Source of the DNA: an uncultured delta proteobacterium | Lineage (GTDB): Bacteria > Myxococcota_A > Polyangia > Polyangiales > Polyangiaceae | Assembly: GCA_963841435.1 (NCBI GenBank) | Contig: CAWJCS010000002.1 | Location: forward strand, 768,001-832,000 | Length of the DNA stretch: 64,000 bases | Direction of reading: 5' to 3' | Part shown: piece by piece, positions 18,334-58,918 of the stretch | Layout of the letters: the number at the start of each line of letters is the position of its first letter | Numbering within the stretch: position 1 is the stretch's first letter | Translations under genes and position numbers: made by a program | Notes under the pieces: model-generated | Seen by the model: only the letters and a program-made list of their open reading frames with translations | Told to the model about the DNA's origin: nothing | The model's database searches: none

Positions 18334-18371
18334 GACCCGAGAACTCTTGCACGAGTTCGCGCGCTCGCCCA

Positions 18372-18523: not shown

Positions 18524-18538
18524 AGAAACCGGTTCCAG
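18524..18538. promoter_or_regulatory. Candidate LacI-family operator AGAAACCGGTTCCAG
   Basis: Near-palindrome with central CG in the same divergent region; matches 62890-62903 at 12/14. Confidence 0.5.
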
Positions 18539-18738
18539 TGCCGCGCCTGCTGCGCAGCGTCATGCGGTAGGCTCGCCGAGCGCCACATTGCGCGCCGGGC
18601 AACCGCCGGGCGCTTCGCTTGACCCTACCCAGCCCTTCGCCTACGAGTCCGAGCGCCCCCATCCGACTCGTGGGTTTGCGCGGCGATTCGTCGGGTTTGT
18701 CGCCGCCCTCGGTCGGCCACCTCCACACCACGGAAAGA

Positions 18739-20550: not shown

Positions 20551-20558
20551 GCCCGCAG

Positions 20559-21626
20559 ATGCTCAGACGCTACCCGACCCTTCGTCACATCCTGGGGCGC
20601 GCGGGCTGGTATTTCCTTACCTTCCTCGTCGCCATCACCGTCAACTTCTTCCTGCCGCGCCTCGGCGACGCGAACCCCGTCGACGCCATCATGGCGCGCG
20701 CCGGCTCGAACCTCGATGCCGCGTCGGCACGCGAGAAGGAAGACGCGTACCTGCGCGAGTTCGGCCTCGTGGAGACCGACGACGAAGGCAACGTGATTCG
20801 CGAGAACGGCAAGCCCGTGAAGACGGCGCTCGTCGAGCAGTTCGCGAACTACCTCTCCATGAGCCTGCAGGGGGACCTCGGCACTTCGATCCTGCAGTAT
20901 CCGAAGCCCGTCGGCGAGATCATCGAAAATGCATTGCCGTGGACGCTCGCGCTGCAGCTACCGACCATCATTTTGGGCTGGTTGGTCGGCAATCTTTTGG
21001 GCGCACTCGCCGCGTACAAGCGCGGCGTCTTCGACCGGGTATTTTATCCACTCGCGCTGCTCGCGAGCGCGGTGCCCGCCTTCTGCGTCGCCATCCTCAT
21101 GGTGTACGTGTTCGGCATCAAGCTCGAGTGGTTCCCCGCCGTCGGCGGCTACGACCCGGGCCAGGTGCCGGCAGCGTCGTTCGAGTTCTTGGTGAGCGCT
21201 AGCTACTACTACGTGATGCCGTTCCTCTCGATCTTCCTGATCGTGGTCGGCGGCCAGGCCATCGGCATGCGCTCGATGTGCATCTACGAGCTCGGGACGG
21301 ACTACGTGAAATACGCGAAGCTCCTGGGGCTCACGGAGAACAAGATCCTGATCTACATCTTTCGCAATGCGATGCTGCCGCAGCTCACCGGCCTCGCGCT
21401 CGCGCTCGGTGCCATGGTCGGCGGCGCGCTCATCACGGAGATCATCTTCAGCTACCCCGGTCTCGGCATGGCAATCCTGACGGCCATCCAGGGCAACGAC
21501 TACCCGGTCATCACCGGTTGCACGCTGCTCATCGCGGCTTGTGTACTGCTCGCGAACTTCAGCGTCGACGTGCTGGTCGGCATCCTCGACCCGCGCATCC
21601 GCGCCGCCCAGGCAGGAAGCAAGTAG
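20559..21626 (+). CDS. ABC permease (OppB-like)
   Basis: NFFLPRL, GDLGTSI, DYVKYAKLLGL, RNAMLPQ, EIIFSYPGLG, DPRIR. Confidence 0.9.
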   Translation: MLRRYPTLRHILGRAGWYFLTFLVAITVNFFLPRLGDANPVDAIMARAGSNLDAASAREKEDAYLREFGLVETDDEGNVIRENGKPVKTALVEQFANYLSMSLQGDLGTSILQYPKPVGEIIENALPWTLALQLPTIILGWLVGNLLGALAAYKRGVFDRVFYPLALLASAVPAFCVAILMVYVFGIKLEWFPAVGGYDPGQVPAASFEFLVSASYYYVMPFLSIFLIVVGGQAIGMRSMCIYELGTDYVKYAKLLGLTENKILIYIFRNAMLPQLTGLALALGAMVGGALITEIIFSYPGLGMAILTAIQGNDYPVITGCTLLIAACVLLANFSVDVLVGILDPRIRAAQAGSK

Positions 21627-21629
21627 CCC

Positions 21630-22469
21630 ATGCAGCTCGTCAAGGGGCTCTTCAAGCAGCCGGCCTTTCTGGTCGGGCTCGTGCTGTTCCTGGGCACGCT
21701 CGGCATCGCGCTGCTCGCGCCGCTCGTCATGCACCTCGACGTGAAGGATCGCGTCGGCGGGCCGTACATGCCGCCGTCGGCGGAGCACTGGCTCGGGACC
21801 GATCACTTGGGCCTCGACATGGTGTCGATGCTCGTGGCGGGCCTGCGTGCCTCGCTCTACGTGGGCTTCTTGGCCGGCACGATCGCGACCGTCGTCGGCA
21901 CGCTGATCGGCGTCTACGGCGGCTACAAGGGCGGCCTAATCGACGACATCCTGACCTCCCTCACGAATCTGTTCCTGGTGATTCCCACCCTCATCGTGTT
22001 GATTTTGCTCTCGAGCAGCATGGAAAAGGGGCGGAGCCTCACGCTGATTGCCGTCATCATCGGCTGCACGACCTGGACGTGGAGCGCCCGCGCCGTGCGC
22101 GCTCAGGCCTCCAGCCTACGAGCTCGTGATCACGTGGCGCTCGCGCGCATCAACGGCTTTAGTACGCTCGAAATCGTCATCGAGCAAATCCTGCCGTACC
22201 TCTTGTCGTACATCTTCATGGTGTTCATCTTGCAGACGGCGACGGCGATCCTCTCGGAGGCGACGATCAGCATGCTCGGCCTCGGCCCCTACGACTCCAT
22301 CTCGCTCGGTAAGATTCTCAACGAGGCGAAAACCAACGAGGCGCTGACCGGCGGAGCCTGGTGGGCCTTCATGCCTGCCATGGTGCTCATCACGCTGATT
22401 GCCTTTTCGCTCTATGTCATCAATACGGCGATGGAAGGTGTTTTCAATCCGAGGTTGAGGAGAGGTTGA
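21630..22469 (+). CDS. ABC permease (OppC-like)
   Basis: PSAEHWLGTDHLG, AILSEATISMLGLG, GAWWAF, FNPRLR. Confidence 0.9.
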   Translation: MQLVKGLFKQPAFLVGLVLFLGTLGIALLAPLVMHLDVKDRVGGPYMPPSAEHWLGTDHLGLDMVSMLVAGLRASLYVGFLAGTIATVVGTLIGVYGGYKGGLIDDILTSLTNLFLVIPTLIVLILLSSSMEKGRSLTLIAVIIGCTTWTWSARAVRAQASSLRARDHVALARINGFSTLEIVIEQILPYLLSYIFMVFILQTATAILSEATISMLGLGPYDSISLGKILNEAKTNEALTGGAWWAFMPAMVLITLIAFSLYVINTAMEGVFNPRLRRG

Positions 22470-22508
22470 GAAAGTGATGCGTGCGGGTGAAGGCGTGAGG
22501 CTCGGGAA

Positions 22509-23486
22509 GTGAGCGCCACCGTTCTCGAGGTCGAAGACCTGCGTGTCCACTACGTCACTCGCTTCGGCGCGAAGATCCAGGCGGTGGACGGCGTCTCCTT
22601 CAAGCTCAAGCAAGGCGAAATCCTCGGGATCGCCGGTGAGTCCGGTTGCGGCAAGACGACGCTCGTCTCCGGCTGCATGGGCCTGTACATCCCGCCGCTC
22701 TATCACTCGTCGGGCGACGTGCGCATCGACGGAAAATCGATCATCGGCCTCGGCCAGGAGCGGAATCGGAAAGAGGTGCTCGGCCGTCAGATCGCGATGA
22801 TCCCGCAGGGGGCGCTCAACTCGCTCAACCCCACGCGCAAGATCAAGGACATGGCCGCCGACATGATCCTGAGCCACGACGAAGGCGCGGACAAGAAGAC
22901 CATCAACGATCGCCTGCGGGAGCGCTTCAGCCGCATCGGCCTCGACGCCGACACGGTGCTGAACTCTTACCCCGTGCAGCTCCCCGCGGGCACGAAGCAG
23001 CGCTGCGTGATCGGCATCTCCACGTTGCTCAATCCCAAGGTCGTGGTGGCCGACGAGCCCACCTCGGCGCTCGACGTTTCGACGCAAAAGTCCGTGATCC
23101 GGCTGCTGTTCGAGCTGATGGACCAGGAAATCATCTCGAGCATGCTCTTCATCACGCACGAGCTCCCGCTGCTGCGCCACGTTTCGAGCTCCATCGCCGT
23201 CATGTATGCGGGCGAGTTCGTCGAATACGGCACGACGGAGCGCGTGATCCTCGACGGGCGTCAGCCCTACACGAAGGCGCTCATGGGCTCGATGCTCTCG
23301 GCCGAGCCCGGCCAGAAGAGCCGGCCGCCCGTCGCCATCGAGGGCGCTCCGCCCAAGCTCGACCACGAGATCCCCGGTTGCCGCTTCGCGGACCGCTGCC
23401 CGGAGGCGCGCCCGGACTGCAGCACGGAGAAGCAAAGCCTGCGCGTTCTTGCGGAGCGAGAGGTTCGCTGCAAGTACGCTGTCTGA
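22509..23486 (+). CDS. ABC ATP-binding subunit (OppD-like) with C-terminal Cys motif; degenerate signature
   Basis: GESGCGKTT, ADEPTSALDV, ITHE, GCRFADRCP...C...VRC; the signature reads YPVQLPAGTKQR. Confidence 0.9.
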   Translation: MSATVLEVEDLRVHYVTRFGAKIQAVDGVSFKLKQGEILGIAGESGCGKTTLVSGCMGLYIPPLYHSSGDVRIDGKSIIGLGQERNRKEVLGRQIAMIPQGALNSLNPTRKIKDMAADMILSHDEGADKKTINDRLRERFSRIGLDADTVLNSYPVQLPAGTKQRCVIGISTLLNPKVVVADEPTSALDVSTQKSVIRLLFELMDQEIISSMLFITHELPLLRHVSSSIAVMYAGEFVEYGTTERVILDGRQPYTKALMGSMLSAEPGQKSRPPVAIEGAPPKLDHEIPGCRFADRCPEARPDCSTEKQSLRVLAEREVRCKYAV

Positions 23487-23574
23487 AGACGTTCATGTTG
23501 ACCAGCATCAGCCACGAGCGCCCCGCGACCCGCGCGCGCGTTGAACCACCCGGTGCCGGCCTAGGAGTAGCCCC

Positions 23575-24393
23575 GTGAGCGACGCACTCAAGTTCGAAGG
23601 CAAGCACCTTACCCGGGTCTTCGGGCACGGGCGCAAGCGCATCGTTGCCGTCGACGACGTTTCGTTCAAGATCAAAGACCGCGAGATTATCTCGCTCGTG
23701 GGCCAGTCCGGCTGCGGCAAGACCGTGCTCGCGAAGATGCTCCTGCGCCTCGAAACTCCGACGAGCGGCGAGCTCTCGTTCAATGGTAAGCCCATCGAAT
23801 CCGTGCGCGATCCGCGCGAGCACTGGCGCCAGGTGCAGGCGGTGTTCCAGGATCCGTTCTCCTGCTTCAACCAGTTTTTCACGATCCGCGCCCAGCTCAA
23901 GAGCTCGTTCCGCCTGTTCCAGAACAAGCCGAGTCCGAAGGAGATGGAGGATCGCGTCGATGAGGCGCTGCTCGCCGTCAACATCAAGCCCAAGGAGATC
24001 GAGGGGAAATACCCGTTCGAGCTCTCGGGCGGTCAGATGCAGCGCATGCTGCTCGCACGCATCTTCATTCTCAAGCCGCAGGTGCTCATCGCAGACGAGC
24101 CGACCAGTATGGTCGATGCCTGCAGCCGCGCGAGCATCCTCGACTACCTGATGAAGCTCAAAGAGGAGCTGTCGATGACGATCGTCTTCGTGACGCACGA
24201 CATCGGGCTCGCCTATTACGTTTCGGACGCCATCTACATCATGCACAAGGGCAAGATCGTGGAGCAGGGGCCGCCCGACAAGGTGACGCAGTCGCCCGAG
24301 AGCGATGTCACCAAGCAGCTGCTCGACGACATCCCGAGCGTCCACAAGCAGTGGATCGAGCGTGGGCCGCCCGGTCGCACCGCGACCGGATAG
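23575..24393 (+). CDS. ABC ATP-binding subunit (OppF-like)
   Basis: GQSGCGKT, VFQDP, YPFELSGGQMQR, ADEPTSMVD, VTHD. Confidence 0.9.
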   Translation: MSDALKFEGKHLTRVFGHGRKRIVAVDDVSFKIKDREIISLVGQSGCGKTVLAKMLLRLETPTSGELSFNGKPIESVRDPREHWRQVQAVFQDPFSCFNQFFTIRAQLKSSFRLFQNKPSPKEMEDRVDEALLAVNIKPKEIEGKYPFELSGGQMQRMLLARIFILKPQVLIADEPTSMVDACSRASILDYLMKLKEELSMTIVFVTHDIGLAYYVSDAIYIMHKGKIVEQGPPDKVTQSPESDVTKQLLDDIPSVHKQWIERGPPGRTATG

Positions 24394-34539: not shown

Positions 34540-36013
<1,474 letters not shown>

Positions 36014-47554: not shown

Positions 47555-49096
47555 TTGAGCGACACCGAGATCCACGACGGCGGGGCGTTCGCTCGACGGG
47601 CGGGGCGGAGCAGCGTGGCAAGCGCGTTCTTCGCCCAGGCGCGGCAGAAGCCCGCGGCGCTGGCCCTCGAAGAGGGAGATCGTCGGCTGAGCTACGGTGC
47701 GCTCGGTGCTCGCGTCCTCGCGCTCGCCGGCGCGCTTCACGCTCGGGGAGTCGGCCGCGGCGATCGCGTCGCCGTCCTCAGTGAGAATCGCGCAGAGTAT
47801 CTGGAGGTTTTCCTTGCGGCAGCGAGCGTCGGCGCGCTCGTCGCCTGCCAGAGCTGGCGGCTCGCCGCGCCCGAGCTCGCGCATTGCGTCGGCCTCGTGT
47901 CGCCGAAGCTCGCGTTCGTTTCGCCGCGGCACCGGGCGGCGATGGATGGCGTCGCGGGCGCGCCACCGCGCGTCGTTTTCGGCGACGACTACGAGGCGCT
48001 GCTCTCGAGCGCAACGCCGCTCGCCGCGCCCGAGGAGCTCGACCCGGAGGACGCCTTCCTCGTTCTTTACACGAGCGGAACCACGGGCCTACCGAAGGGC
48101 GCCGTCATCAGCCATCGCGCGGAGCTCGCACGAAACCTCGTGGTGCTCGCCGAGTTCGGCGTGCGCCCGGACGACACGTTCGTCGCGTGGTCGCCTCTCT
48201 ACCACATGGGTGGTGCGGACTACTCGCTCGGCACGCTCATGTCCGGCGGCAAGGTCATGCTCGTCGACGGCTTCGATCGCGCGCGCCTCGCGGAGATCGT
48301 CGCGAGCGAGACGTTAGGCTGGCTCATCCTCATGCCCGGCATGGTCTCGACGTTTGCGGTCGAGCTCGAGGCGCGTCGTGTCGAGCCACGCGGCGTGCGC
48401 CTATGCGGCGTGATGGCCGACCTCGTCCCGCCCGCTGAGATCGCGCGCATCACGCGTCTGCTTCGCGCGCCCTACGCGAACACCTTCGGCGCCACCGAGA
48501 CCGGCTGCCCGCCGTGCTCGTCGAATCTCATCCCCGTCGGGATCGTGCCCGAAAGGCTCTCGAAGGAGCCGAGTCGCTTCTGCGAGATCCGCCTGGTCGA
48601 CGCCGACGACAGGGACGTTCCGGACGGCGCGCCCGGCGAGCTCTGCCTCCGGGGGCCCACGCTGTTCAGCGGCTACTTTCGGGCGCCCGAAGTCAACGCG
48701 CACGAGTTTCGCGGCGGCTACTTCCACATGGGCGACGTGTTCGTACGAAACTCGGACCGCACGCTCGACTTCGTCGACCGCGTGAAATACCTCATCAAGT
48801 CGGGCGGCGAGAATATCTACCCCGCCGAGATCGAGCGCGTGCTGTTGCGCGACCCGCGCGTCGCGGAGGCAGCCGTGGTGCGCGCCCGCGACCCGAAGTG
48901 GGGCGAGGTGCCGGTCGCCTACCTCGCCGTCAACGACGAAAGCCTCGGCGAGGACGAGCTCAAGCAGCTGTGCCGGGCCGCGCTCGCGGGGTACAAACAG
49001 CCGAAGGCCTTCCGTTTCATCGCGCTCGAGGATTTCCCTCGCAGCGCATCCGGGAAAATCCAGCGCCACGAGCTGGAGAAGCGAGAGCGACGATGA
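47555..49096 (+). CDS. AMP-forming acyl/aryl-CoA ligase
   Basis: YTSGTTGLPKG, PLYHMGG, FGATET, FHMGD, DRVKYLIKSGGENIYPAEIE, SGKIQ. Confidence 0.9.
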   Translation: MSDTEIHDGGAFARRAGRSSVASAFFAQARQKPAALALEEGDRRLSYGALGARVLALAGALHARGVGRGDRVAVLSENRAEYLEVFLAAASVGALVACQSWRLAAPELAHCVGLVSPKLAFVSPRHRAAMDGVAGAPPRVVFGDDYEALLSSATPLAAPEELDPEDAFLVLYTSGTTGLPKGAVISHRAELARNLVVLAEFGVRPDDTFVAWSPLYHMGGADYSLGTLMSGGKVMLVDGFDRARLAEIVASETLGWLILMPGMVSTFAVELEARRVEPRGVRLCGVMADLVPPAEIARITRLLRAPYANTFGATETGCPPCSSNLIPVGIVPERLSKEPSRFCEIRLVDADDRDVPDGAPGELCLRGPTLFSGYFRAPEVNAHEFRGGYFHMGDVFVRNSDRTLDFVDRVKYLIKSGGENIYPAEIERVLLRDPRVAEAAVVRARDPKWGEVPVAYLAVNDESLGEDELKQLCRAALAGYKQPKAFRFIALEDFPRSASGKIQRHELEKRERR

Positions 49097-49869
49097 GCGA
49101 CCTTCCCGAGCACCAGACGACGAGCATTGCCACCTCCACCGTCGACGACGTGTGGATCCGCGACAAGAGCCTGTGCCGCGAGCTCATCGGCAAGCTGAGC
49201 TTCACCGAGGTCCTGTATTTCCAGATCCTGGGGAAAATGCCCAGTCCCGGCGAGCGAGACGTCGTGGACGCCTGCCTCGTCACGCTCATGGAGCACGGTC
49301 TCACGCCGAGCGCGCTCACGACGCGGCTCGTGTACTCGAGCGCCGAGGAGGCGCTGCAGGCCGCCGTCGCGGCAGGATTGCTCTGTGTCGGCAGCCGCTT
49401 CGTGGGGACGACGGAGGGGGCAGGGGAGCTCATCGAGCGCATCGTCTCAGCGGGCGACGCGGGCGCGGCGGAGGCCGAGCGTATCGCTCTGGAGTTTCGC
49501 GCCGCCAAGCGCCCGCTGCCGGGCTTCGGTCACCCGTTCCACAAGCCCGACGATCCGCGGACGCCACGCCTGCTCGAGCTCGCTCGCGAGCGAGGCGTCG
49601 CAGGCGCGCACGTGCGCGCCATCGAGCTCTTGGCGGACGCCGTGGATCGCACGTGCGGCCGGCACATCACGCTCAACGCGACCGGTGCCGTCGCCGCCGT
49701 GCTGGGCGACTGTGGCGTTCCGCGTCGCGTGCTGCGCGGCTTCGCGGTCATCGCACGGGCGGCGGGGCTCGTCGGCCACGTCCACGAAGAGCAGGAACGA
49801 CCCGCCATGCGCGCCATCTGGGAGGCGGCCGAACGCAAGGTCGCCTACGACGGAAAAGCAGGCCGTTGA
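49093..49869 (+). CDS. Citryl-CoA lyase-like (citrate synthase family) protein
   Basis: ATGA overlap; LMEHGLTPSA, PGFGHP.HKPDDPR, LNATGA, RAAGLVGHVHEEQ. Confidence 0.85.
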   Translation: MSDLPEHQTTSIATSTVDDVWIRDKSLCRELIGKLSFTEVLYFQILGKMPSPGERDVVDACLVTLMEHGLTPSALTTRLVYSSAEEALQAAVAAGLLCVGSRFVGTTEGAGELIERIVSAGDAGAAEAERIALEFRAAKRPLPGFGHPFHKPDDPRTPRLLELARERGVAGAHVRAIELLADAVDRTCGRHITLNATGAVAAVLGDCGVPRRVLRGFAVIARAAGLVGHVHEEQERPAMRAIWEAAERKVAYDGKAGR

Positions 49870-49931
49870 CCGCGGTCGCGCCGTGACGCGACATGCTAGA
49901 GTCCTGCCCCTTTCCAAGAGGAGAACGGTCC

Positions 49932-50606
49932 ATGAAGCTCTACATGCATCCAGTGTCCATGACGAGCCGGCCCGTCCGGCTGTTCATCGCCGAGAACGAA
50001 ATCCCCTGCGAGGAGCAGATCGTCGATCTGATGAAGGGCGAGCACTTGCAGGAGCCCTACGCCGCGATCAATCCGAACAAGCTCGTTCCCGTGCTCGAGG
50101 ACGGCGATCTCCGCCTTACGGAGAGCTCCGCCATCCTCAAGTACCTCGCCGACAAGATCGAGTCGCCCACCTACCCGAAGGACCTGAAGAAGCGGGCGAA
50201 GGTGAACGAGATGATGGATTGGTTCAACACCAACTTCTATCGCGACTACGGCTACGGAATGGCGTACCCGCAGATCTTTCCCCATCACAAGCGGCCGACC
50301 GATGACGTGCAGAGCGCGACGATCGCCTGGGGCACCGAGCGCGCCCGCAGCTGGCTCAAGATCCTCGACGAGCACTGGATTGGGCCCAAGCGTGCCTACG
50401 TGACGGGCGACTCCATCACGATCGCCGACTACTTCGGCTCGTGCCTCGTGACGCTCGGCGAGGTGTTGCGCGTCGATTTCGAGCCATTTCCCAACGTGCA
50501 GCGTTGGCTCGGCAACATGAAGAAGCTCAGGAGCTGGCCGAAGGTGAACGAGGCGCTCTATGGTCTCCAGGGCGCGCTGAAGGACCTGCCGTTCGTCACC
50601 GTTTGA
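49932..50606 (+). CDS. Glutathione S-transferase family protein
   Basis: INPNKLVPVLEDGD, TESSAILKYL, SITIAD; ATG 49932. Confidence 0.9.
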   Translation: MKLYMHPVSMTSRPVRLFIAENEIPCEEQIVDLMKGEHLQEPYAAINPNKLVPVLEDGDLRLTESSAILKYLADKIESPTYPKDLKKRAKVNEMMDWFNTNFYRDYGYGMAYPQIFPHHKRPTDDVQSATIAWGTERARSWLKILDEHWIGPKRAYVTGDSITIADYFGSCLVTLGEVLRVDFEPFPNVQRWLGNMKKLRSWPKVNEALYGLQGALKDLPFVTV

Positions 50607-50614
50607 TCCCCGCG

Positions 50615-51103
50615 ATGCTCAAGGGCCTGCACCACAACGCCTACCGCTGCCGCGATTCGGAGGAGACCCGCAAGTTCTACGAGGACTTCTTGGGTCTCCC
50701 CCTCGCGGCGACGTTGGAGCTCAAGGAAACGAAGACCGGCCGGCCCACGGAGACGCTGCACACCTTCTACCGCCTGGACAACGGGTCGTTCCTCGCGTTC
50801 TTCGAGGCGCCGGACATGCCCTTCGAGTTCAAGGTGCAGCACGACTACGATCTGCACATCGCGGTCGAGGTCGAGTACGGAGATCTCGCGCCGATGCTGG
50901 CCAAGGGGAACGCCGCCGGGATCGCGACGCGCGGCATCTCGGACCACGGCTTCATCCACTCGATCTATTTTCAGGATCCCAACGGGTACATCATCGAGCT
51001 CACGGCCAAGCTCCCGCACCACGACGAGTCGGTCGATCCAACGAAAAATGGGGCGCGGAGCAAGCTTGACGCCTGGCAGCAGCGCAAGCCGCAGCCGCAC
51101 TGA
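50615..51103 (+). CDS. VOC (glyoxalase/bleomycin resistance/dioxygenase) family protein
   Basis: LHHNAYRCRD...FYEDFLGL, LHIA, SIYFQDPNGYIIEL. Confidence 0.85.
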   Translation: MLKGLHHNAYRCRDSEETRKFYEDFLGLPLAATLELKETKTGRPTETLHTFYRLDNGSFLAFFEAPDMPFEFKVQHDYDLHIAVEVEYGDLAPMLAKGNAAGIATRGISDHGFIHSIYFQDPNGYIIELTAKLPHHDESVDPTKNGARSKLDAWQQRKPQPH

Positions 51104-51125
51104 GCTCGGTGGTTCGTCGAGGTCC

Positions 51126-52140
51126 GTGAAGGGGCTCGTCGCGTGGTTCGTCGTGCTCGGCGCACTCCTCGTGCCGCTTCCCGCGAGCGCCGAGGACGCC
51201 GTGCCGTTGCCGAGCATGCCGGGCGAGCAGCCCGAGCCAGCGCTTCCGACGACGCCGGATGATGCGGCACCCCCGGCGCCGCCCGCTGCCGAGCCGGAGC
51301 CGCCCCCGACCGAGCCGCCCGCTGCCGAGCCGCCCGCTGCCGAACCGGAGCCGCCCCCGGTGCCGCCCGCCGCGTCCTTTCCCGAGACATCAGCGGTCGA
51401 GCCACCGCCTGCCGCGCCGCCGCCCGCGAGCGCCGCGCCGCCCGCACAGCACCTGCTCGGTCCCGCACCGGAGTCGCCGGCGCCCGAGCGTCGCTGGACC
51501 TCCGCACCGCCCGAGAAGAACAAGGACGACGAGGGCGGGATTTTCGGCCCGTTTCGCATCGGGCCCTTCGTGAGCTTCGGGACGCCGAGCCTGGTCGGCG
51601 TGGGCGCGATGATCAAGCTCACGCGCTACGTCGCCGCGGGCGCGCACGTCGGTCTGATTCCGACCCTTCGCTTCAAGTACTACGGCGAAGCGACCGTCTC
51701 GTACCAGGACTACACGCTTTTCGGCCGGTTGCATCTGCTCGGCGGCGGCTTCTTCCTCGGCGCAGAGGTGGGCTACGCGCACATGCGGGGGACCTACGAC
51801 GAAACGATCAACGTCTCCGAAGTACACGGGCTCCGTGCCGGGCCTGCCGACGAGCGTCGATTACTCGAGCACCGGTACGGTGAAGACCTTGGTTTTGACG
51901 CCCGAGATCGGCTACTTCAAGACCTTCGGCTCGGGCTTCAGCATCGGCGTGGACTTCGGCGTTCAGGTTCCCATTGCGCCGAGCGAGGTGAGCTTCCAGC
52001 GCAAGGTGAGCTCGGGCTTGCCGGACACGCTCGTCGATCAGCTCCTTGCGCCCGAAGACGAGAAAGTGAAGAGCACCCTCGAAAAGCTCGGGCGCACCGT
52101 GCTCCCCGCGCTCCACGTGCGCATGGGCTTTTTGCTCTAG
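51126..52140 (+). CDS. Hypothetical outer-membrane beta-barrel-like protein with Pro-rich N-terminus (frameshift near 51820)
   Basis: Signal peptide, PPAAEP repeats, alternating beta-strand pattern, ends VRMGFLL*. Confidence 0.6.
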
Positions 52141-52168
52141 GAGCGGCGGCATTCGCCGGAAAAGACGT

Positions 52169-55111
52169 TCAGGTCGGCGCGAAACGCGGGCGGTGCACGC
52201 CCCAGACGCCGCCGAAATCCGCCACGCGCTCGGGTGCGCTCTTCGCCCAGCGGCTGAGCGAAAGTGGCAACGTCGTTTCGAACTGGAACCACAGCGCCTG
52301 GTCCGAGTAGCGGTGCGGGCGATCCGCGACCTTGGGTGACTGCGCGAGGATCCGGCGCGTGAGCGCGGCGCCGGGTCCGTGCGGCGTCATGCCGGGCGTG
52401 ATGAACAGCGCGCCCGGTGCGAAGAACGTTTCGCGCGTCGTGATGTCGCGCACGATGCCGTTGATCTCGGTCGTGCCGTTGCGATGAAAATACGGCGGGC
52501 GGAACGTGCCCTCGGTCGCGTCCCAGCGCGGGGCGAAGACCACGAGGTCGAGGCTCGCCGTGCCCGGCTCGTCGAGCGGCGCGCTCAGCACGGTGTGGAC
52601 GGACGGATCCACGTGATCGACTCGCGCGTTGCCGACGGGCGAGAAGAGCGAAAGATCGTAGACGACGGGCGTGTAGTTGCCGTGCCAGGCGACGACGTCG
52701 AAGGGTGAATGGTCCTGGCGCGCTTCGTAGAGCTTGCCGCCGAGCTTGTGCGTGAGCCGGAAGCCCGGGCTCAGGCGGTTCTCGAACCAGGCGGCAGGCC
52801 CGCGAAAATGGCGCGGATCGGCCAGGCCGTTGGCGCCTATCAGGCCGCGCTCCGGCAGCCCGAAGTGGCGGCCGTAGACCTCGGCGAGGTAGCCGCGCGC
52901 CGTCGCGTCGCGAAGTAGCACGCTGAACCGGATGCCGCGCGGCACGAGGGCGAGCTCACCGGGCCGAACCTCGAGTGCTCCAAGCTCCGTCAGCAACGTG
53001 AGCCGGCCCTGCTGCGGCAAGAGCAAGAGGTCACCGTCGGCGTTGCAGACGGCGCGCTCCTCCATGCTGCGGTTGGCGGCGTAGACGTGCACGGCAAAGC
53101 CACGCCGCGCGGCGGCGGAGCCGGAGCCCCCGATGGTGCGCACGCCGGCGACGAAATCCGTGGGTGTGACGGGCGGGGCGAGCGGCGCGAAGCCCGTGAG
53201 GTTCGCTTCGAGCGGCTCGGCGCAAAAGTCGTCGGAGAACAGCGCGCCGTCGAGTGGCACGAACGGTGAGGCGTTGGTGCTCGGCCGTACCCGGTACATC
53301 CAGACGCGCGCGTTCTCGGCACGCCGAGCCGTGAAGCCGGTGCCGTTCAGCTGCTCGGGGTAAAGGCCGTAGGGCGCGTGACGTGGCGTGTTCTGGGCCG
53401 CGGGCAGGGCGCCGGGGAGCGCCTCGCTCGCATGGTGGTTGCCGAAACCGAGCGGCGCCGGCGGCGGCGCTCGCCCGGCGAGCGCGGCGTGCGCGAGCAG
53501 GCGGTGCTCGGCGTGGAGGGTGTGCGCTTCGCCCGCCGCCATGGCGAGCGTCACGTCGAGCCCGGCTGTCGCGAGGTGCTTGGCGGTGCGCTCAACGTCA
53601 CCCTCGCCGAGCCAGGGATCGCCGCGGCTCGCTCCGACGAGCACCGGCATGCCGCGGAGCGCGCTCGGGGGCGCGAGCTCTTCGCCCGGTGCGCCGATGT
53701 TTGCGCCCGAGAGCGCGACGACGCCTGCGAGCCGCTCGCTCCGCCTCGACGAGAGCTCGAGCGCGAGACACGCGCCCTGTGAGAACCCGTACAAGGCGAC
53801 GTGCTCCGCGCCCGCCTCGGAAACGGCGTGATCGAGCACCTTGCCGGTTGCGGCGAGAGCGCCCTCGAGCTCGGCGAGCTCCCGTTTCGGCGCGCTGTAG
53901 CGCCCGGTGTACCAGGCGTTGTCCGTCGCCTGGGGTGCGAGGATCGCGAGCTCGGGATCGTCACCCGTGAGCTCGAGCACGCGAGCGACGGCGCCGTCCG
54001 CCGTCGCGCCACGCCCGTGCAGCGCCACGATCACGCGTCGCGCCGTCGCCGGCGCGGGGCCGTGCACGGCGACCGGTTCGGAGAGGCCGAAATCCTCGTG
54101 GCGCGTCGCACGTGAGGGGCGGCGGCCGTGGTACGCGCTCCGGAGCAGCGCACGCGGTAGCTCCGCGTGGGACAGAAGGATCGCGTCGAGCTTCGCGAGC
54201 GTCACGCCGAGCGCCTTGAGCGAGGTGGGTGCGCCCGCGCGTACCAGGGCATCGAACAGCCCTGCTTCCAGGTCACCCACGGCGAGGCGCGCTTCGACCT
54301 CTCGTACGACGGGTGCGTGGGTCGCACGGGCGGCGTGCACGGTGTGCGGGAGCAACGCGGCGTGCAGCGCGCCATGCTCGAGATCGAGCATGCCTCCGAG
54401 CCGGTGAACGAGCTCGTGGTGCGCCCCCACTTTCGCGCCCTCGAGCAGCCGGGCCGCCTGAGCCGCGCCGCGCAGCGCCGCGGCGCGCGCGCCAGGGTCC
54501 ACGGGTGAGCGCAGGATGCCGTCGATCGCGCCGTAGACGCGCTCGATCGCCGCGAGCGCCTGCTCGGAGCGCTGTTCGCCGTCGGCCGTCGTGAGGAGCG
54601 TGCCGAGCGGATGGGCCAGCGCGTTGAGCAGGCTCGTGACGCTGAGTGCCTTGGGCATGTCGAGCGTGAGCTCCACGTCGTGGATGACGAGGCGCGGGCG
54701 CACGCGGTCGTCCCGGCCCGTGACCTTCTTGCCGTTTTCGAGGCGGCCGTGGATGTTGGTGTGCTCGGAGCCCGAATACGTGGTGGGAATCGCCACGAGG
54801 GTGATCGCGTGCTCGAGCCCGAGCACCTTGGCGAGGCCGATGGCGGAGCCGCCACCGAGCGCGATCACCGTGTCGGCGCCGCTTGCCGCGAGCGCCTGCG
54901 TTGCTTCGGCGACAACGTCCTCGGGTACGTGGCGGCGAGCGCCCGAGTAGACGCCCACGGCTCGCTCGCCGAGCAGCGGCTTTACCCGGTCGAGGTAGCG
55001 CTCACTCGGCCCCGTCACGACGAGCACACGGCGACTGCCGAGCGCGTCGAGCGCTGCCGGCAGCGCGGCGAGCTCGTCCGCCTCGAGTGGTGGGCCCGGA
55101 ACCGCGCTCAC
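52169..55111 (-). CDS. Three-domain fusion: maleylacetate reductase-like Fe-ADH + alpha/beta-hydrolase (carboxylesterase) + homogentisate 1,2-dioxygenase-like domain
   Basis: GGGSAIGLAK, IPTTYSGSE, NALAH, HHELVHRLGG; LHGRG, GFSQGA, GDPW, EAH; GFGN..SEALPGALP, PYGLYPEQL, FDVVAWHGNY, DHVDPS, FRPPYFHRN..E, MTPHGP. Confidence 0.85.
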   Translation of the reverse strand: MSAVPGPPLEADELAALPAALDALGSRRVLVVTGPSERYLDRVKPLLGERAVGVYSGARRHVPEDVVAEATQALAASGADTVIALGGGSAIGLAKVLGLEHAITLVAIPTTYSGSEHTNIHGRLENGKKVTGRDDRVRPRLVIHDVELTLDMPKALSVTSLLNALAHPLGTLLTTADGEQRSEQALAAIERVYGAIDGILRSPVDPGARAAALRGAAQAARLLEGAKVGAHHELVHRLGGMLDLEHGALHAALLPHTVHAARATHAPVVREVEARLAVGDLEAGLFDALVRAGAPTSLKALGVTLAKLDAILLSHAELPRALLRSAYHGRRPSRATRHEDFGLSEPVAVHGPAPATARRVIVALHGRGATADGAVARVLELTGDDPELAILAPQATDNAWYTGRYSAPKRELAELEGALAATGKVLDHAVSEAGAEHVALYGFSQGACLALELSSRRSERLAGVVALSGANIGAPGEELAPPSALRGMPVLVGASRGDPWLGEGDVERTAKHLATAGLDVTLAMAAGEAHTLHAEHRLLAHAALAGRAPPPAPLGFGNHHASEALPGALPAAQNTPRHAPYGLYPEQLNGTGFTARRAENARVWMYRVRPSTNASPFVPLDGALFSDDFCAEPLEANLTGFAPLAPPVTPTDFVAGVRTIGGSGSAAARRGFAVHVYAANRSMEERAVCNADGDLLLLPQQGRLTLLTELGALEVRPGELALVPRGIRFSVLLRDATARGYLAEVYGRHFGLPERGLIGANGLADPRHFRGPAAWFENRLSPGFRLTHKLGGKLYEARQDHSPFDVVAWHGNYTPVVYDLSLFSPVGNARVDHVDPSVHTVLSAPLDEPGTASLDLVVFAPRWDATEGTFRPPYFHRNGTTEINGIVRDITTRETFFAPGALFITPGMTPHGPGAALTRRILAQSPKVADRPHRYSDQALWFQFETTLPLSLSRWAKSAPERVADFGGVWGVHRPRFAPT

Positions 55112-55938
55112 GGGCTCTCCAAGTGGAGGAGCGCGCGCGCCTCGCTCGGGGTTGCGATGCTGCGGCCGTGCTCGCGGGCGAGCGTGGCGACGCGGGCGAC
55201 GAGCTCCGCGTTGCTCGCGGCGAGTCGATGCTCGTCGAATCGCACGTTGTCCTCGAGCCCGGTGCGAACGTGCCCACCGAGCTCGAGCGACCAGCGGTTC
55301 ACCGTGAGCTGGTGCTTGCCCATCCCGGCGGCCGTCCAGCTGGCGCCCGGCATCACGCTGGCGAGCTCGCGCACGAGAAACTCGAAAAGCTCACGTCGGG
55401 CCGGCAGCGCGTTCTTCAGGCCGAGCACGAACTGCACGTGCGCCGGCGCGCGGACGAGCTGCCGCTCGACGAGCGCGGCCGCGTTGTAGAGCATGGCGAC
55501 GTCGAACACCTCGATCTCGGGCTTGATCCCGCGCGCCAGCATCTCGCTTGCGAGCCCCTCGATGAATTCGGGGGGATTCTCGTACACGGAGGTGGGAAAG
55601 TTCACGGAGCCCGTCGCGAGCGAGGCCATGTCGGGTCCGAGATGAAGCATCGAGCCACGCTCCGCGAGCGAGCGCCCACGGCCACCCGTCGAAAATTGGA
55701 CGATCATGCCCGGGCAGTGCTCCTTCACGCCCTCCATCACGCGCGCGAAGCGCGAGGGGTCCGAGGACGGGTGACCCTCGTCGTCGCGGACGTGCACGTG
55801 CACGAGTGCGGCGCCGGCCTCGTAGGCGGCCTGGGTCGACTCGATCTGTTCGCTCGGACTGATCGGGACGTTCGGATTGTTCGCCTTCTGCGGAAGGGAG
55901 CCGGTGATGGCGACGCTGATGATGCAGGGCTCGGCCAC
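55108..55938 (-). CDS. Beta-keto acid cleavage enzyme (BKACE / Kce / DUF849)
   Basis: IISVAITGS, NVPISPSEQ, VHVHVRD, QFSTGG, MASLATGSVNF, KPEIEVFD, HVRTGLEDN; GTGA overlap with the fusion gene. Confidence 0.9.
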   Translation of the reverse strand: MAEPCIISVAITGSLPQKANNPNVPISPSEQIESTQAAYEAGAALVHVHVRDDEGHPSSDPSRFARVMEGVKEHCPGMIVQFSTGGRGRSLAERGSMLHLGPDMASLATGSVNFPTSVYENPPEFIEGLASEMLARGIKPEIEVFDVAMLYNAAALVERQLVRAPAHVQFVLGLKNALPARRELFEFLVRELASVMPGASWTAAGMGKHQLTVNRWSLELGGHVRTGLEDNVRFDEHRLAASNAELVARVATLAREHGRSIATPSEARALLHLESP

Positions 55939-55964
55939 GCCCCCGCATCATCCCCCAAACCGCC

Positions 55965-57296
55965 TCAGGGCGCTGCCCCGAGCTCGCTCAGGGACCTCAA
56001 AAAATAAGCACTGTCCTTGGGTCGCCGCACCTGGGTCGCGAAGTCCACGTGAAAAAGCCCGTAGCGCAGCGTGTACCCCTCCGACCATTCGAAGTTGTCG
56101 AGCAGCGACCAGGCAAAGTAGCTCTCGACGGGCACGCCCTCGCGCCGAGCGATGGCGATCTCCGCCAGGTGCGCTGCGAGGAACTCGGTGCGCCCGCGAT
56201 CGTGGATTTTGCCGTCGGCCTCGAGCGCGTCGTCGAAGGCGGCGCCGTTCTCCGTGACCACGAGGCGCGAGAATCCGTAGTCACGATGGAGGCGAGTCAG
56301 CGTCTCGCGAATTCCCGGCGCGTAGATCTCACGGTCCGCCGTGCGCGGCAGGCCGGTGTCGCGGACCCGGCGCTCGGAGAGCACGCCGCCCGCCGGGTCG
56401 TGGGCGACGACGGCGCGCTCGTAGTAGTTGACGCCGAGCACGTCGATGGGCTCGGCCATCCGCTCGAGGTCACCGGGCGCCATGGCCGGCATGCGCGAGC
56501 CGTAGAGCTCGCACATGTCCGCCGGGTAGCCGCGGCCGACCAGCGGCTCGACGAACCAGCGATTGAAGTTGCCGTCGACGCGCCGGGCCGCCGCGCGGTC
56601 CTCGGGTGAATCGCTCGCGGGGTGGGCCGGCAGATAGTTCACGGCGATTCCGACGGGCGCGCGCGTGCGCGTCCGGAGCGCTCGCACGGCCTCGCCGTGC
56701 GAGATGAGCAGATGGTGGGCGCAGAGCAGCGCCTCGCCGAGATCGTGGTGACCGGGCGCGAACAGGCCAGTGTGGTAGCCGAGGAATGCCTGGCACCACG
56801 GTTCGTTGTGCGTGAGGTAAAGCGCGACACGGTCACCGAGCCGCGCGCCGACCGCGTCCGCGAACTCCGCGAAGGCCCCCACCGTGTCGCGCGAAAGCCA
56901 GCCGCCGGGGAGGGCGTCCGGCAGGTCCCAGTGGTAGAGCGTGGCGTTCGGGCGGATGCCGCGCTCCAGCAAACGATCGACGAGGCGATCGTAGAAATCG
57001 AGCCCCCGCTGGTTGACTTGGCCACGTCCGAGCGGGACCACGCGGGGCCAGGCGATGCTGAACCGGTAGGCGTTCACGCCGAGCCACCCGAGCAGGGCGA
57101 GGTCCGCTTCGAATCGATGGTAGTGGTCGCAGGCGATGTCCGCGTGGTGGCCGAGCTTGGTCTTCCCGAGCGTGTGCGAGAACCTGTCCCAGATGCTCGG
57201 GCCCCGGCCGTCCTCGTTCACGGCGCCCTCGATCTGGTAGGAGGACGTGGCGACGCCGAGCTGGAAGTCTTGGCCGAGATCCGCGCGCGCGAGCAT
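55965..57296 (-). CDS. GH1 beta-glucosidase
   Basis: GVATSSYQIEGA, CDHYHRF, YRFSIAWPR, TLYHWDLP, acid/base HNEP, nucleophile VTENG, WSLLDNFEWSEGY. Confidence 0.95.
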   Translation of the reverse strand: MLARADLGQDFQLGVATSSYQIEGAVNEDGRGPSIWDRFSHTLGKTKLGHHADIACDHYHRFEADLALLGWLGVNAYRFSIAWPRVVPLGRGQVNQRGLDFYDRLVDRLLERGIRPNATLYHWDLPDALPGGWLSRDTVGAFAEFADAVGARLGDRVALYLTHNEPWCQAFLGYHTGLFAPGHHDLGEALLCAHHLLISHGEAVRALRTRTRAPVGIAVNYLPAHPASDSPEDRAAARRVDGNFNRWFVEPLVGRGYPADMCELYGSRMPAMAPGDLERMAEPIDVLGVNYYERAVVAHDPAGGVLSERRVRDTGLPRTADREIYAPGIRETLTRLHRDYGFSRLVVTENGAAFDDALEADGKIHDRGRTEFLAAHLAEIAIARREGVPVESYFAWSLLDNFEWSEGYTLRYGLFHVDFATQVRRPKDSAYFLRSLSELGAAP

Positions 57297-57493
57297 TCGC
57301 CCCCTTTTGAGTCGATTCCTTCACGCAAATCAAGTTGTCCCGCCCTGAGACGCGCCTTGCCGCGCGGGCCCGCGCTCCGGCGTCATCCCGCCCGAGCGGC
57401 TACCGACTCCCGACTCGCTGTCGCGTTCGACGCGATCGCGGCGCTCGACGCGAGAAGGCGTGCCGAGCACACGATAAAGATCCATAGTAGTTT

Positions 57494-58918
57494 ATGGCGG
57501 CTTATCGGCCGAACAACCTGATCGCGATTTCCGACCTGCACCTTGGGGCGGACCTCGTGCATCACGTGCGGCCCGACGCCCCGGCGCGCTCCCTCTCGAG
57601 CGAGCGCAGCGACCGAGAGCTCGTCGAGCTGCTCGCCTGGTACCGCGACCACCGCGTGGACGACAAGCCGTGGCGATTGGTGATCGGCGGCGACTTCATC
57701 GACTTCGCGGGCATGGCCATGACGGCTCGTGGTGCAGAGCTATCGACGCCGCCCACGGAGGAGGAGCTCTATCACGGCCTCGGCAGCTCCATGGATCACG
57801 CGCTCGTCAAGCTCCAACTCGTGCTCGTGCATCACGCAGGAGTGATGGAGGCGCTCGCTCGTTTCGTCGCAGCGGGCAACACCCTCGTCATCGTGCGGGG
57901 CAACCACGACGTGGACTGGCACTGGCGCCCGGTGCAGCGCGCTTTCAGGCGCGCACTCGAAGCGTACGCGCCCCTGCCACGCGGTGCCGTCGCCTTCGAG
58001 CCGTGGTTTTACTACGAGGAGGGTCTCGTCTACGTCGAGCACGGGCATCAGTACGATCCGTGCTGCAGCTACGACAACGTGCTCTACCCCATTTCCCCCA
58101 CGGACCCGCTGCGTACGGCAAGGTCGCTCGCGGACGTGCTCTTGCGCTACGTCGTGCGTCCCACGCGCGGCATGCGAGAAAGTGGTCACGAAGCCGCGAG
58201 CCTCCTCGACTATCTGAGATTCGCCGTTCGGCTCGGGGCGCGCGGTGCCGTCGCGCTCGTGGGGCGCTTCGCGGCCGCGAACCGCGCGCTGCTAGCCCTC
58301 TGGCGCGGGCACCTGCGAGGCGCCTCGGATCGGGTCAAGGCCGTCCATCGCCGGCGCATGCGCGCGCTGAGCACCTTCTATCGCATTCGGCTCGAACGCC
58401 TCGAGAGCCTCGCGAAGCTGCAGTACGCCCCGGTGACGCGCAGCCTCGCCGGCATCCTCACGAGCGTCATGCTCGATCGCGTGCTGCTGGTCGCCGTCGC
58501 CCTGCTCGGAACGGCGGTGTTGCTCCTGTTCACGCCACGCTGGGTGGCGGTGCCCGGGGTGGCGCTGCTCGTCGCGGTGCTGCTCGCCGGATTCCGTCAC
58601 GTCTTTCCCGTCCGCAGCGTGGAGCCGAGCGCACTCTTGCGCGAGCGCTCGATGCTCGTGGCAAAGCTCTTTCCCGCAGCCTTTGTCGTCATGGGGCACA
58701 CCCACCTGCCCGAGGTTCGCTCGCGAGAGCGCGTGACGTACGTGAACCTCGGTGCCTGGGCCGAGCCCGACTCCGCCGAGGGCGGCGCCGCGCCGCCACC
58801 CGCGGCGCGGACTCATCTCGTCTTGTTGCGTGCAGAAGGTGGCATGACGGCAGAGCTCCGGGCCTGGCGAGCGACGGGCCCCGAAGCGTTCGTCGGCGGC
58901 GAGCCGCGCGCCTGCTGA
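57494..58918 (+). CDS. Calcineurin-like metallophosphoesterase with internal TM hairpin
   Basis: ISDLHLG, GGDFID, RGNHD, EHGHQYD, MGHTH, YVNLGAW. Confidence 0.85.
   Translation: MAAYRPNNLIAISDLHLGADLVHHVRPDAPARSLSSERSDRELVELLAWYRDHRVDDKPWRLVIGGDFIDFAGMAMTARGAELSTPPTEEELYHGLGSSMDHALVKLQLVLVHHAGVMEALARFVAAGNTLVIVRGNHDVDWHWRPVQRAFRRALEAYAPLPRGAVAFEPWFYYEEGLVYVEHGHQYDPCCSYDNVLYPISPTDPLRTARSLADVLLRYVVRPTRGMRESGHEAASLLDYLRFAVRLGARGAVALVGRFAAANRALLALWRGHLRGASDRVKAVHRRRMRALSTFYRIRLERLESLAKLQYAPVTRSLAGILTSVMLDRVLLVAVALLGTAVLLLFTPRWVAVPGVALLVAVLLAGFRHVFPVRSVEPSALLRERSMLVAKLFPAAFVVMGHTHLPEVRSRERVTYVNLGAWAEPDSAEGGAAPPPAARTHLVLLRAEGGMTAELRAWRATGPEAFVGGEPRAC

Follow-up and report, generated by a model that had tools for sequence, protein, structure and literature searches.

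Organization of the three-gene locus

The window analysed here is a 64,000-bp stretch of contig CAWJCS010000002.1 (positions 768,001 to 832,000, forward strand) of an uncultured delta proteobacterium of the family Polyangiaceae (GenBank assembly GCA_963841435.1). The source genome (G000 below; L-numbers denote fetched loci) consisted of 7.78 Mb on 6 contigs with approximately 69% G+C content and was 95% complete. The subject of this study is a cluster of three minus-strand genes in the window encoding a GH1 beta-glucosidase, a BKACE family protein and a fusion protein of 980 amino acids (aa) that combines a maleylacetate reductase (MAR) domain, a carboxylesterase domain and a domain resembling homogentisate 1,2-dioxygenase (HGD). 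The BKACE and the fusion protein may together convert a substituted hydroquinone, through 3-oxoadipate, into succinyl-CoA and acetoacetate. The features of the locus were as follows.

55965-57296 (−): GH1 beta-glucosidase, 443 aa; PF00232, TIGR03356; no obvious signal peptide seen
55108-55938 (−): BKACE, 276 aa; PF05853, NF053568
52169-55111 (−): fusion gene, 980 aa, three domains
54092-55111 (−): fusion residues 1-340, MAR domain of the iron-containing alcohol dehydrogenase (Fe-ADH) family; PF00465, PF25137
53477-54091 (−): fusion residues 341-545, Abhydrolase_2 carboxylesterase domain; PF02230
52169-53476 (−): fusion residues 546-980 and stop codon, HGD-like cupin dioxygenase domain; HgmA_N, HgmA_C

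Direct reading of the sequence revealed a 26-nt spacer between the GH1 and BKACE genes. The BKACE stop codon overlapped the start of the fusion gene as GTGA, with GGAGAG upstream of the fusion GTG. An original prediction, made from the letters of the window alone, had described this co-orientation, spacer and overlap, and the three-gene arrangement was confirmed at the above coordinates. The fusion gene that it proposed was also real (52169-55111); however, the product contained three domains and not two, the esterase having been missed. The third-position GC of the three open reading frames (ORFs) was 0.87-0.90, against approximately 0.69 overall. A simple scan of positions 51000-57700 detected no promoter-like site and two terminator-like sites, both outside the three-gene block and none between the genes.

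Domain architecture of the fusion protein

Profile matches placed the Fe-ADH/MAR domain at residues ~11-310, Abhydrolase_2 at 357-537 and HgmA_N plus HgmA_C at 555-971. The top three solved relatives of the N-terminal domain were the maleylacetate reductase family entries 3HL0, 3JZD and 3W5S (E 5e-54 to 3e-51), while matches to Fe-ADHs of other named functions were at E 8.5e-18 or weaker; solved MARs were thus closer to this domain than other Fe-ADHs. A genome search located MAR in the source genome solely within this fusion. At least 449 homologs of the fusion protein could be retrieved. Among the 120 that were listed, nearly all had three domains, a length of ~965-1019 aa and 48-69% identity, and their names, 'homogentisate 1,2-dioxygenase' or 'iron-containing alcohol dehydrogenase', came solely from automatic annotation.

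The central domain matched PF02230 with 37.6 bits, above the gathering score of 23. Its closest solved relative was 4H0C (E 1.3e-23), in an alignment that spanned GFSQGA, and a weak match to dienelactone hydrolase (DLH) was also seen (E 1e-4). Across 119 full-length fusion proteins, conservation of Ser444 (within GFSQG), Asp498 and His530 was at least 98%, a level which implies that hydrolysis is an obligatory step. By homology, these residues would form the catalytic triad, and the domain is predicted to hydrolyze the methyl (or other alkyl) ester of the ring-cleavage product or of its reduced form. Two other roles were considered for this domain. Action as a C-C hydrolase of succinylacetoacetate or maleylacetoacetate found no support and would leave the BKACE without a substrate, and a thioesterase in a double-BKACE cycle was set aside, as most fusion-bearing lineages had no BKACE ortholog.

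BKACE and its predicted substrate

The BKACE matched PF05853 over positions 1-274 of 274 (E 1.2e-95). It also scored 452.2 bits with NF053568, the equivalog model of 3-oxoadipate:acetyl-CoA acetyltransferase (cut-off 350), while the next model, Kce, gave 285 bits, below its cut-off of 382. The closest solved relative was 3NO5 (373 bits). The protein is therefore predicted to convert 3-oxoadipate and acetyl-CoA into succinyl-CoA and acetoacetate. No second BKACE was found in the source genome by genome search. The HVHV and GLEDN motifs were conserved in 30/30 aligned sequences; we take the H-x-H and LEDN motifs to be the metal site.

Orthologs were found in 25 of 383 Polyangiaceae genomes (63-81% identity, E 1.7e-110 or better), and the next matches were paralogs with at most 42% identity. 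Arg87 of the STGGR motif was present in 25/25 orthologs and was replaced by Ala in 5/5 paralogs (39-41% identity). An arginine in QFSTGGR had been proposed to bind a distal carboxylate. The residue proved to be specific to the subfamily, a pattern that fits a basic residue for a dicarboxylate, although this is no proof of the proposed role. As a separate observation, most Polyangiaceae genomes carried one or two BKACE paralogs with 35-42% identity in ORFs of ~430-470 aa (for example G738:C1:10048218-10049012 and G672:C8:749648-750448). Such a length is compatible with the bifunctional 3-aminobutyryl-CoA ammonia-lyase/Kce type, whose NF052389 profile has 440 positions.

The 3-oxoadipate activity of BKACE is said to have been found originally by in vitro screening. 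The family was reportedly characterised by Bastard et al. in 2014, a study that is cited in bioRxiv 10.1101/2023.02.15.528638.

The HGD-like domain belongs to a non-canonical subfamily

The C-terminal domain matched HgmA_N (E 1.1e-99) and HgmA_C (E 7.5e-32). Its AlphaFold2 (AF2) model (mean pLDDT 91.8) aligned to human HGD (1EY2) with Z 53.9 and a root-mean-square deviation of 1.7 Å over 410 residues at 43% identity. Domain content, fold and the His/Glu/His iron ligands, which were conserved across the 119 full-length fusion proteins, make the domain a member of the HGD family. Its score with TIGR01015, the hmgA equivalog, was nevertheless 442.1 bits, below the cut-off of 510.75. At the position of the lid residue Tyr350 (Tyr346 in P. 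putida), the window protein had Ile together with a one-residue deletion, and at the His365 position it had Thr.

To place these replacements, 34 HGD segments from the fetched loci were aligned, 29 of them linked to MAR and/or esterase domains and 5 stand-alone. All 29 linked domains lacked the Tyr of the lid motif Y[DE]AK and had Thr/Ser-Pro in place of His365, and the stand-alone L063 had the same changes. The stand-alone L065-L068 retained the human-type Y-D-A-K (Tyr350), S-L-H-N (His365) and N-x-M-S-E. The lid Tyr is described as binding the carboxylate of homogentisate, and PcMHQD2 of P. chrysosporium, in which it is replaced by Phe, as having no homogentisate activity (PMC11634970 section 7; PMC6337169). 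His365 is described as forming a hydrogen bond to Glu341 and taking part in proton transfer as part of a proton relay (bioRxiv 10.64898/2026.06.02.729205). The non-canonical active site thus argues against homogentisate as the substrate, and with it against the branch of the original prediction that led through succinylacetoacetate to the BKACE.

The comparison was then extended to 139 sequences, comprising the 34 segments and 105 proteins of at least 400 aa from a listing of 120, a sample biased to relatives of the query. Among these, 128 were non-canonical and 11 canonical, with 94 of the 105 added proteins in the former group. All 128 formed one clade that excluded the 11 canonical sequences (support 0.998; FastTree, LG+gamma, 431 columns; unrooted split), and the triple fusions fell in two separate subclades. 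Judged by sequence, the HGD-like domain is part of a subfamily distinct from canonical HGD, and the automatic name 'homogentisate 1,2-dioxygenase' is probably wrong for this whole subfamily. The domain is predicted to be a (methoxy)hydroquinone 1,2-dioxygenase.

Within the non-canonical set, 24 proteins of ~424-480 aa, most of them stand-alone, formed a subclade. PDB entry 9PZ4, a solved 496-aa 'homogentisate 1,2-dioxygenase', lacked the lid Tyr motif and had Gln at the His365 position and N-T-A-V-E replacing N-C-M-S-E; this protein may be a hydroquinone-type enzyme.

Conservation of the fusion and its linkage to BKACE

A phylum-level search of 401 sampled genomes revealed full triple fusions in G000 and six others. 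Seven further genomes had adjacent MAR and HGD matches as two-domain fusions or split genes; in G111 a MAR-esterase gene adjoined an HGD gene, and in G007 an esterase-HGD gene lay at a contig end. The family-level search covered the 383 Polyangiaceae genomes, including the unpublished G654 and G655, on which no individual claim depends, and its counts are lower bounds. Close triple fusions (at least 51% identity) occurred in at least 15 genomes at full length and in 3 as contig-cut fragments, and more distant ones (42-43% identity) were found in G745 and G541.

The fusion and the BKACE occurred together. A BKACE ortholog was present in each of the 18 Polyangiaceae genomes that encode a close triple fusion, and 24 of the 25 ortholog genomes had a MAR-domain match. 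Among the other seven ortholog genomes, the match was MAR-only in G517, G708, G709, G711 and G715, with an in-frame stop in four of these five; G722 had a MAR-esterase match, and G714 had none at E 1e-40. Within the genus of the source organism, the same 7 of 46 other genomes held both the fusion and the BKACE.

Gene order agreed with this distribution. The BKACE gene lay directly upstream of a MAR-containing gene in 14 of 24 fetched ortholog loci, and in 12 of those 14 this gene was a full or contig-truncated triple fusion. In the other two, the BKACE adjoined a MAR-esterase gene (L118, from G722) and a MAR-only gene (L120, from G517). No HGD remnant could be detected in either locus, even at E 10, and the MAR match of G517 contained an in-frame TGA. 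These two loci may represent decaying copies or a maleylacetate-only module. The remaining 10 loci had S1-domain, FdhD, DUF998, pirin or RHS genes beside the BKACE and were uninformative; in G305, G716, G717, G718 and G719, where the BKACE was not adjacent, the fusion was encoded elsewhere in the genome. The same BKACE-fusion pair was present on metagenome contig L069, which may be redundant with G429. A metagenome scan gave 6 loci and a genome-contig scan 4, and neither recovered the 64-69%-identical relatives seen in the homolog listing.

In other lineages the picture was different. Neither BKACE nor GH1 was found within ±10 kb (tblastn, E<1e-8) of 20 MAR/HGD loci of relatives from other lineages, chosen from the phylum search. 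On this null result the BKACE was at first viewed as an incidental neighbour, a view that was reversed by the family-level BKACE search. In L052, the fusion gene was followed by two genes with overlapping stops that matched TIGR02429 (236 bits, cut-off 128) and TIGR02428 (269 bits, cut-off 244), the models of 3-oxoacid CoA-transferase A and B. In L051, L054 and L055, the genes that followed the fusion clustered with the L052 pair, and LysR-type genes lay upstream in L051 and L052. By these profile matches, PcaIJ-type CoA-transferase genes stand in for the BKACE at the fusion in another clade, a putative functional replacement.

Aromatic catabolism in the rest of the genome

A classical Phe/Tyr catabolic set was located on contig C1 (L048:4578-18565), separate from the fusion contig. 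In this set, an HPPD-like gene (269 bits, just below the cut-off of 277) directly adjoined a gene for a 384-aa distant HGD-like cupin (42 bits with the hmgA model; HgmA_N E 7.6e-11). Approximately 10 kb from the hppD-like gene were maiA (246 bits, cut-off 171), a 324-aa FAA_hydrolase-family gene and an aromatic amino-acid hydroxylase gene. The genes usually associated with HGD were thus found beside this HGD-like gene and not beside the fusion. The fusion domain was the only strong HGD match in the source genome. In this organism, the role of true homogentisate dioxygenase probably falls to the short C1 protein; short HGD forms are described as functional in Bacillus (PMC4457819). No hppD, maiA or fahA was seen within ±10 kb in the 20 loci of relatives (Pfam, selected neighbours), except for an HPPD-like neighbour of the canonical-type L066.

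The 64-kb window contained no fahA, hppD or pcaIJF, and no glutathione S-transferase (GST) that passed the maiA model (the GST at 49893-50606 gave 68 bits, below 171). The absence of these genes, including a zeta-class maiA, from the window had been correctly stated in the original prediction. The 95%-complete genome had no pcaI/scoA-family gene, no pcaF above the cut-off (best 317 bits, below 597) and no intradiol dioxygenase. An acetoacetyl-CoA synthetase was encoded elsewhere in the genome (790 bits, cut-off 521). The lack of a PcaI/ScoA-type transferase and of pcaF above the cut-off supports the earlier suggestion that succinyl-CoA could be formed without PcaIJ and PcaF.

GH1 as a neighbour of the BKACE and fusion genes

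The GH1 protein matched PF00232 (E 3.6e-142) and passed TIGR03356, a generic beta-glucosidase equivalog (548.6 bits, cut-off 478.5). Its translation contained NEP and ENG, presumably the motifs of the two catalytic Glu residues. A GH1 gene was found near the BKACE in 4 of the 24 ortholog loci, all of the same genus (4/7 genus loci), and in 0/17 ortholog loci outside the genus (tblastn). It lay ~0.83 kb from the BKACE in G623, G629 and G619, with a possible unannotatable opposite-strand ORF between, and 3.9 kb away in G634. In G610 and G611, no GH1 was present at the same syntenic site and the flanking genes were retained. The sparse occurrence and the larger gaps in relatives make the 26-nt junction look like a recent juxtaposition. 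GH1 is thus probably an incidental, genus-level neighbour and would be at most a lineage-specific feeder acting on hydroquinone glucosides. The synteny of GH1, BKACE and fusion in relatives, proposed earlier as a check, held within Polyangiaceae for the BKACE and the MAR-containing gene (14/24 loci) but not for GH1, which had been placed as the first member of the pathway. The rest of the window contained GH8, ABC transporter, KDPG aldolase and PfkB kinase genes and no aromatic-catabolic genes; GH1 may owe its presence to this carbohydrate-use setting.

Proposed pathway and comparison with known systems

The 980-aa protein would be trifunctional and convert a substituted hydroquinone into 3-oxoadipate, most likely from 2-methoxyhydroquinone or a close alkoxy analogue of lignin or plant origin. 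The C-terminal Fe(II) dioxygenase domain would cleave the ring between C1 (O-alkyl) and C2 (OH) to give a maleylacetate monoester (4-hydroxy-6-methoxy-6-oxohexa-2,4-dienoate). The N-terminal MAR domain would reduce the C=C bond with NAD(P)H, and the central serine esterase would remove the alkyl group to yield 3-oxoadipate and methanol, these two steps being possible in either order. The esterase step is logically required in this scheme because the monoester, not being a beta-keto acid, could not serve the BKACE as a substrate. The translationally coupled BKACE would then convert 3-oxoadipate and acetyl-CoA into succinyl-CoA and acetoacetate, replacing PcaIJ and PcaF, and the acetoacetyl-CoA synthetase encoded elsewhere could activate the acetoacetate. 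Substrates and activities in this scheme are predictions throughout, built on the observed domain families, residues, linkage, co-occurrence and replacement pattern.

A precedent is available in fungi. In Aspergillus niger, MhdA, an HGD homolog 50.8% identical to HmgA, is described as converting methoxyhydroquinone into 4-hydroxy-6-methoxy-6-oxohexa-2,4-dienoate. Deletion of omeA, a carboxylesterase gene neighbouring mhdA, is described as leading to accumulation of 3-oxoadipate monomethyl ester, and the authors propose a MAR-type reductase, for which the enzyme was not yet identified, between MhdA and OmeA (PMC8336404). The present module resembles this route, as described there, in its non-classical HGD-superfamily dioxygenase linked to a carboxylesterase, in MAR-type reduction and in its end at 3-oxoadipate; this likeness is a functional analogy. 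It differs in being bacterial, in carrying the three predicted activities, including the reductase, on one polypeptide and in its exit through a BKACE or CoA-transferase. The three predicted fungal-route activities on one protein, beside a 3-oxoacid-specific neighbour, lead us to read the module as a route from (methoxy)hydroquinone to 3-oxoadipate and on to succinyl-CoA and acetoacetate.

The scheme shares with the known MAR pathway the conversion of a maleylacetate-type intermediate into 3-oxoadipate by a MAR-family enzyme and the formation of succinyl-CoA. It departs from that pathway in that ring cleavage would be performed by an Fe(II) cupin of the HGD family and not by an intradiol enzyme, in the added esterase and in the single BKACE that would replace PcaIJ plus PcaF. 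Compared with classical HGD (human 1EY2; P. putida HmgA 3ZDS/4AQ2/4AQ6), the domain has the same fold and retains the His/Glu/His ligands, whereas the lid Tyr350 and His365 are replaced and the domain is fused to MAR and esterase and unlinked to hppD/maiA/fahA. The BKACE agrees with the NF053568 type in its full-length match above the equivalog cut-off and its 373 bits to 3NO5; what sets it apart from described contexts is the MAR-esterase-HGD-like fusion as a partner, a concrete candidate for a physiological source of 3-oxoadipate. No description of this BKACE context was found in the literature, although the supplements of bioRxiv 10.1101/2023.02.15.528638 may list some. Literature searches likewise found no description of a MAR-HGD fusion or of an HGD-type methoxyhydroquinone route outside fungi. 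According to section 7 of a 2024 review (PMC11634970), the bacterial enzyme for methoxyhydroquinone cleavage is another Fe(II) dioxygenase, with low identity to the HGD-type enzymes of fungi.

Weighing of the proposed and rival pathways

The core idea of the original prediction, cleavage of a p-diphenol ring followed by MAR-type reduction to 3-oxoadipate and a BKACE step, gains support from the NF053568 match, the adjacency in 14/24 loci and the co-occurrence in 18/18 genomes. The exit step as a whole, through the BKACE equivalog, the linkage and the CoA-transferase replacement, points to 3-oxoadipate. The earlier interpretation is therefore partly supported, and the locus is not a classical homogentisate operon; missing from that interpretation were the esterase domain, the non-canonical HGD-like site, the separate tyrosine cluster and the fungal methoxyhydroquinone precedent. 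We consider it an even call that the module corresponds, in bacterial and fused form, to the MhdA/OmeA route of fungi, with the BKACE as its exit. Our confidence in methoxyhydroquinone as the exact substrate is lower than in the scheme as a whole. Only tentatively, with doubt slightly ahead of belief, do we propose that Polyangiaceae and other Myxococcota hold the first bacterial HGD-type (methoxy)hydroquinone dioxygenase, in a trifunctional polypeptide that would take methoxyhydroquinone to 3-oxoadipate without prior O-demethylation. Several observations weigh against the proposed route. The HGD-like domain retains His292, Pro295, Pro332 and Tyr333, its identity to human HGD in the structural alignment is as high as 43%, and the sample of 139 sequences is biased as described. 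In at least 24 Polyangiaceae genomes, MAR and HGD matches lay side by side with no esterase match, mostly in one ORF of ~800-890 aa, so the ancestral substrate need not be ester-forming. The window revealed neither a vanillate hydroxylase nor any other source of methoxyhydroquinone, and a conserved block of neighbouring genes, described below, is not explained by the model. PcMHQD1 retains the lid Tyr (PMC11634970), and loss of this residue is consequently no general mark of methoxyhydroquinone enzymes.

The esterase-free forms would fit a hydroxyquinol or other non-ester hydroquinone route, in which 1,2,4-benzenetriol or a halo-hydroquinone would give maleylacetate directly for MAR and the BKACE, the esterase being accessory and DLH-like or unrelated. 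MAR normally partners hydroxyquinol dioxygenases. The missing intradiol dioxygenase and the weak DLH match also fit such a route. Speaking against it are the esterase triad, retained by at least 98% of 119 fusion proteins, and the placement of triple fusions in two separate subclades; the fungal HGD-type PcMHQD1 and PcMHQD2 are described as inactive on trihydroxybenzene (PMC11634970 section 7). We hold this route to be unlikely. The retained residues and iron ligands, the clear HGD family membership, the status of the fusion domain as the only strong HGD match in the genome and the widespread MAR-HGD linkage would instead suit a reductive homogentisate bypass. Homogentisate would pass through maleylacetoacetate and, by a MAR-like step, succinylacetoacetate to 3-oxoadipyl-CoA and acetoacetate (by BKACE or CoA-transferase), avoiding the glutathione (GSH)-dependent isomerase and FAH. 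Against it stand the replaced lid Tyr and His365 in 29/29 linked domains, the score below the hmgA cut-off and the tyrosine set, in which hppD adjoins a different, distant HGD-like gene and maiA and the FAH-family gene lie ~10 kb off on that other contig. The bypass moreover offers the esterase no role, the BKACE matches a 3-oxoadipate equivalog while succinylacetoacetate is two carbons longer, and the BKACE is still paired with MAR in two genomes without the HGD part at the locus. We regard it as quite unlikely. The full operon originally proposed, in which GH1 would free the aglycone of an aryl beta-glucoside (arbutin, salicin or a plant methoxyhydroquinone glucoside) for the fusion and the BKACE, seems decidedly unlikely. 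Plain hydroquinone released from arbutin would be cleaved to 4-hydroxymuconic semialdehyde, which is no MAR substrate. The 26-nt spacer without a terminator-like site and the GH1 genes near the BKACE in 4/7 genomes of the genus are in its favour, as are the glycosylated methoxy- and dimethoxyhydroquinones described from wheat grains (PMC7840630). GH1 was, however, found in 0/20 MAR/HGD loci of other lineages and 0/17 ortholog loci outside the genus, was absent from the syntenic site in G610 and G611 and lay 0.83-3.9 kb away where present in relatives; it passed a generic beta-glucosidase equivalog, and GH8 and sugar-catabolic genes are encoded in the same window.

If the proposed (methoxy)hydroquinone route is correct, direct opening of the ring, with no need for O-demethylation, would give bacteria such as these cellulolytic soil myxobacteria access to guaiacyl-lignin or to hydroquinone units of plants, a route documented so far only in fungi. 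It would also indicate a MAR-type enzyme as the still unassigned reductase of the fungal route. The orphan 3-oxoadipate BKACE would gain a physiological role as a one-enzyme replacement for PcaIJ and PcaF, and the fusion and the BKACE would constitute a compact two-gene module from aromatic ring to succinyl-CoA and acetoacetate, with possible use in lignin valorisation. Many bacterial 'homogentisate 1,2-dioxygenase' annotations (128/139 in the query-biased sample) would probably be wrong, the enzymes acting on other hydroquinones. The cytoplasmic GH1 of this genus might in that case also release the aglycone from plant methoxyhydroquinone glucosides.

Neighbouring genes and other observations

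A block of four plus-strand genes lies beside the fusion gene in the window.

47555-49096 (+): AMP-forming acyl-CoA ligase, 513 aa; PF00501, PF13193; top solved relatives FadD5 (239 bits) and feruloyl-CoA synthetase (218 bits)
49093-49869 (+): citryl-CoA-lyase-like protein, 258 aa; NF004868 (307 bits, cut-off 193); 6HXP (E 5.8e-41)
49893-50606 (+): theta-like GST, 237 aa; GST_N, GST_C; nearest solved relative GST theta-1; not zeta-class maiA
50615-51103 (+): single-module VOC (glyoxalase-fold) protein, ~163 aa; PF00903; 9U42 (E 2e-21)

The start of the citryl-CoA-lyase-like gene overlapped the ligase stop as ATGA. The VOC start was placed at ATG 50615, relatives aligning from residue 59 of the long ORF. 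The ligase gene adjoined MAR/HGD genes in L053, L056-L058, L106, L115 and L070; the citryl-CoA-lyase-like gene was conserved next to the fusion in L053, L106, L115 and L070, and the GST gene near the fusion in L049, L053, L058, L070, L072, L106 and L115. The block (window 47555-51103 (+), L053:13022-16954, L070:1-2262, L106:2-3164, L115:13717-16805) lay next to the fusion in G610, G611, G192 and metagenome contig L070 as well as here, and in G192 and one metagenome contig it lay on the fusion strand. It might be an upstream feeder, for example for side-chain removal from a phenylpropanoid. A role of the block ligase as acetoacetyl-CoA synthetase was set aside, since the genome encodes a bona fide one at another site.

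In the ~1 kb that separates the VOC gene from the fusion gene (51104-52168), no convincing gene could be recognized; the sole ORF with high third-position GC there (51835-52140, 101 aa) had no Pfam match. Near the fusion, G610, G611 and G712 carried a gene of 506-569 aa that matched no Pfam family; in G610 and G611 it lay immediately downstream of the fusion, and tblastn detected no counterpart of it in the window. Further away, a 1006-aa GH8 protein with a Stig1-like cysteine-rich region was encoded at 15568-18588 (−). A five-gene oligopeptide-type ABC transporter (18619-24393, +) was divergent from it, with the KDPG aldolase and PfkB kinase genes nearby. At 34540-36013 (−), a sigma-54 activator was seemingly split into two ORFs with ~290 nt between them, one matching positions 1-86 of 168 of Sigma54_activat and the other AAA_lid_14 and HTH_8; a frameshift or a pseudogene could underlie the split, as could an artefact of the ORF filter.

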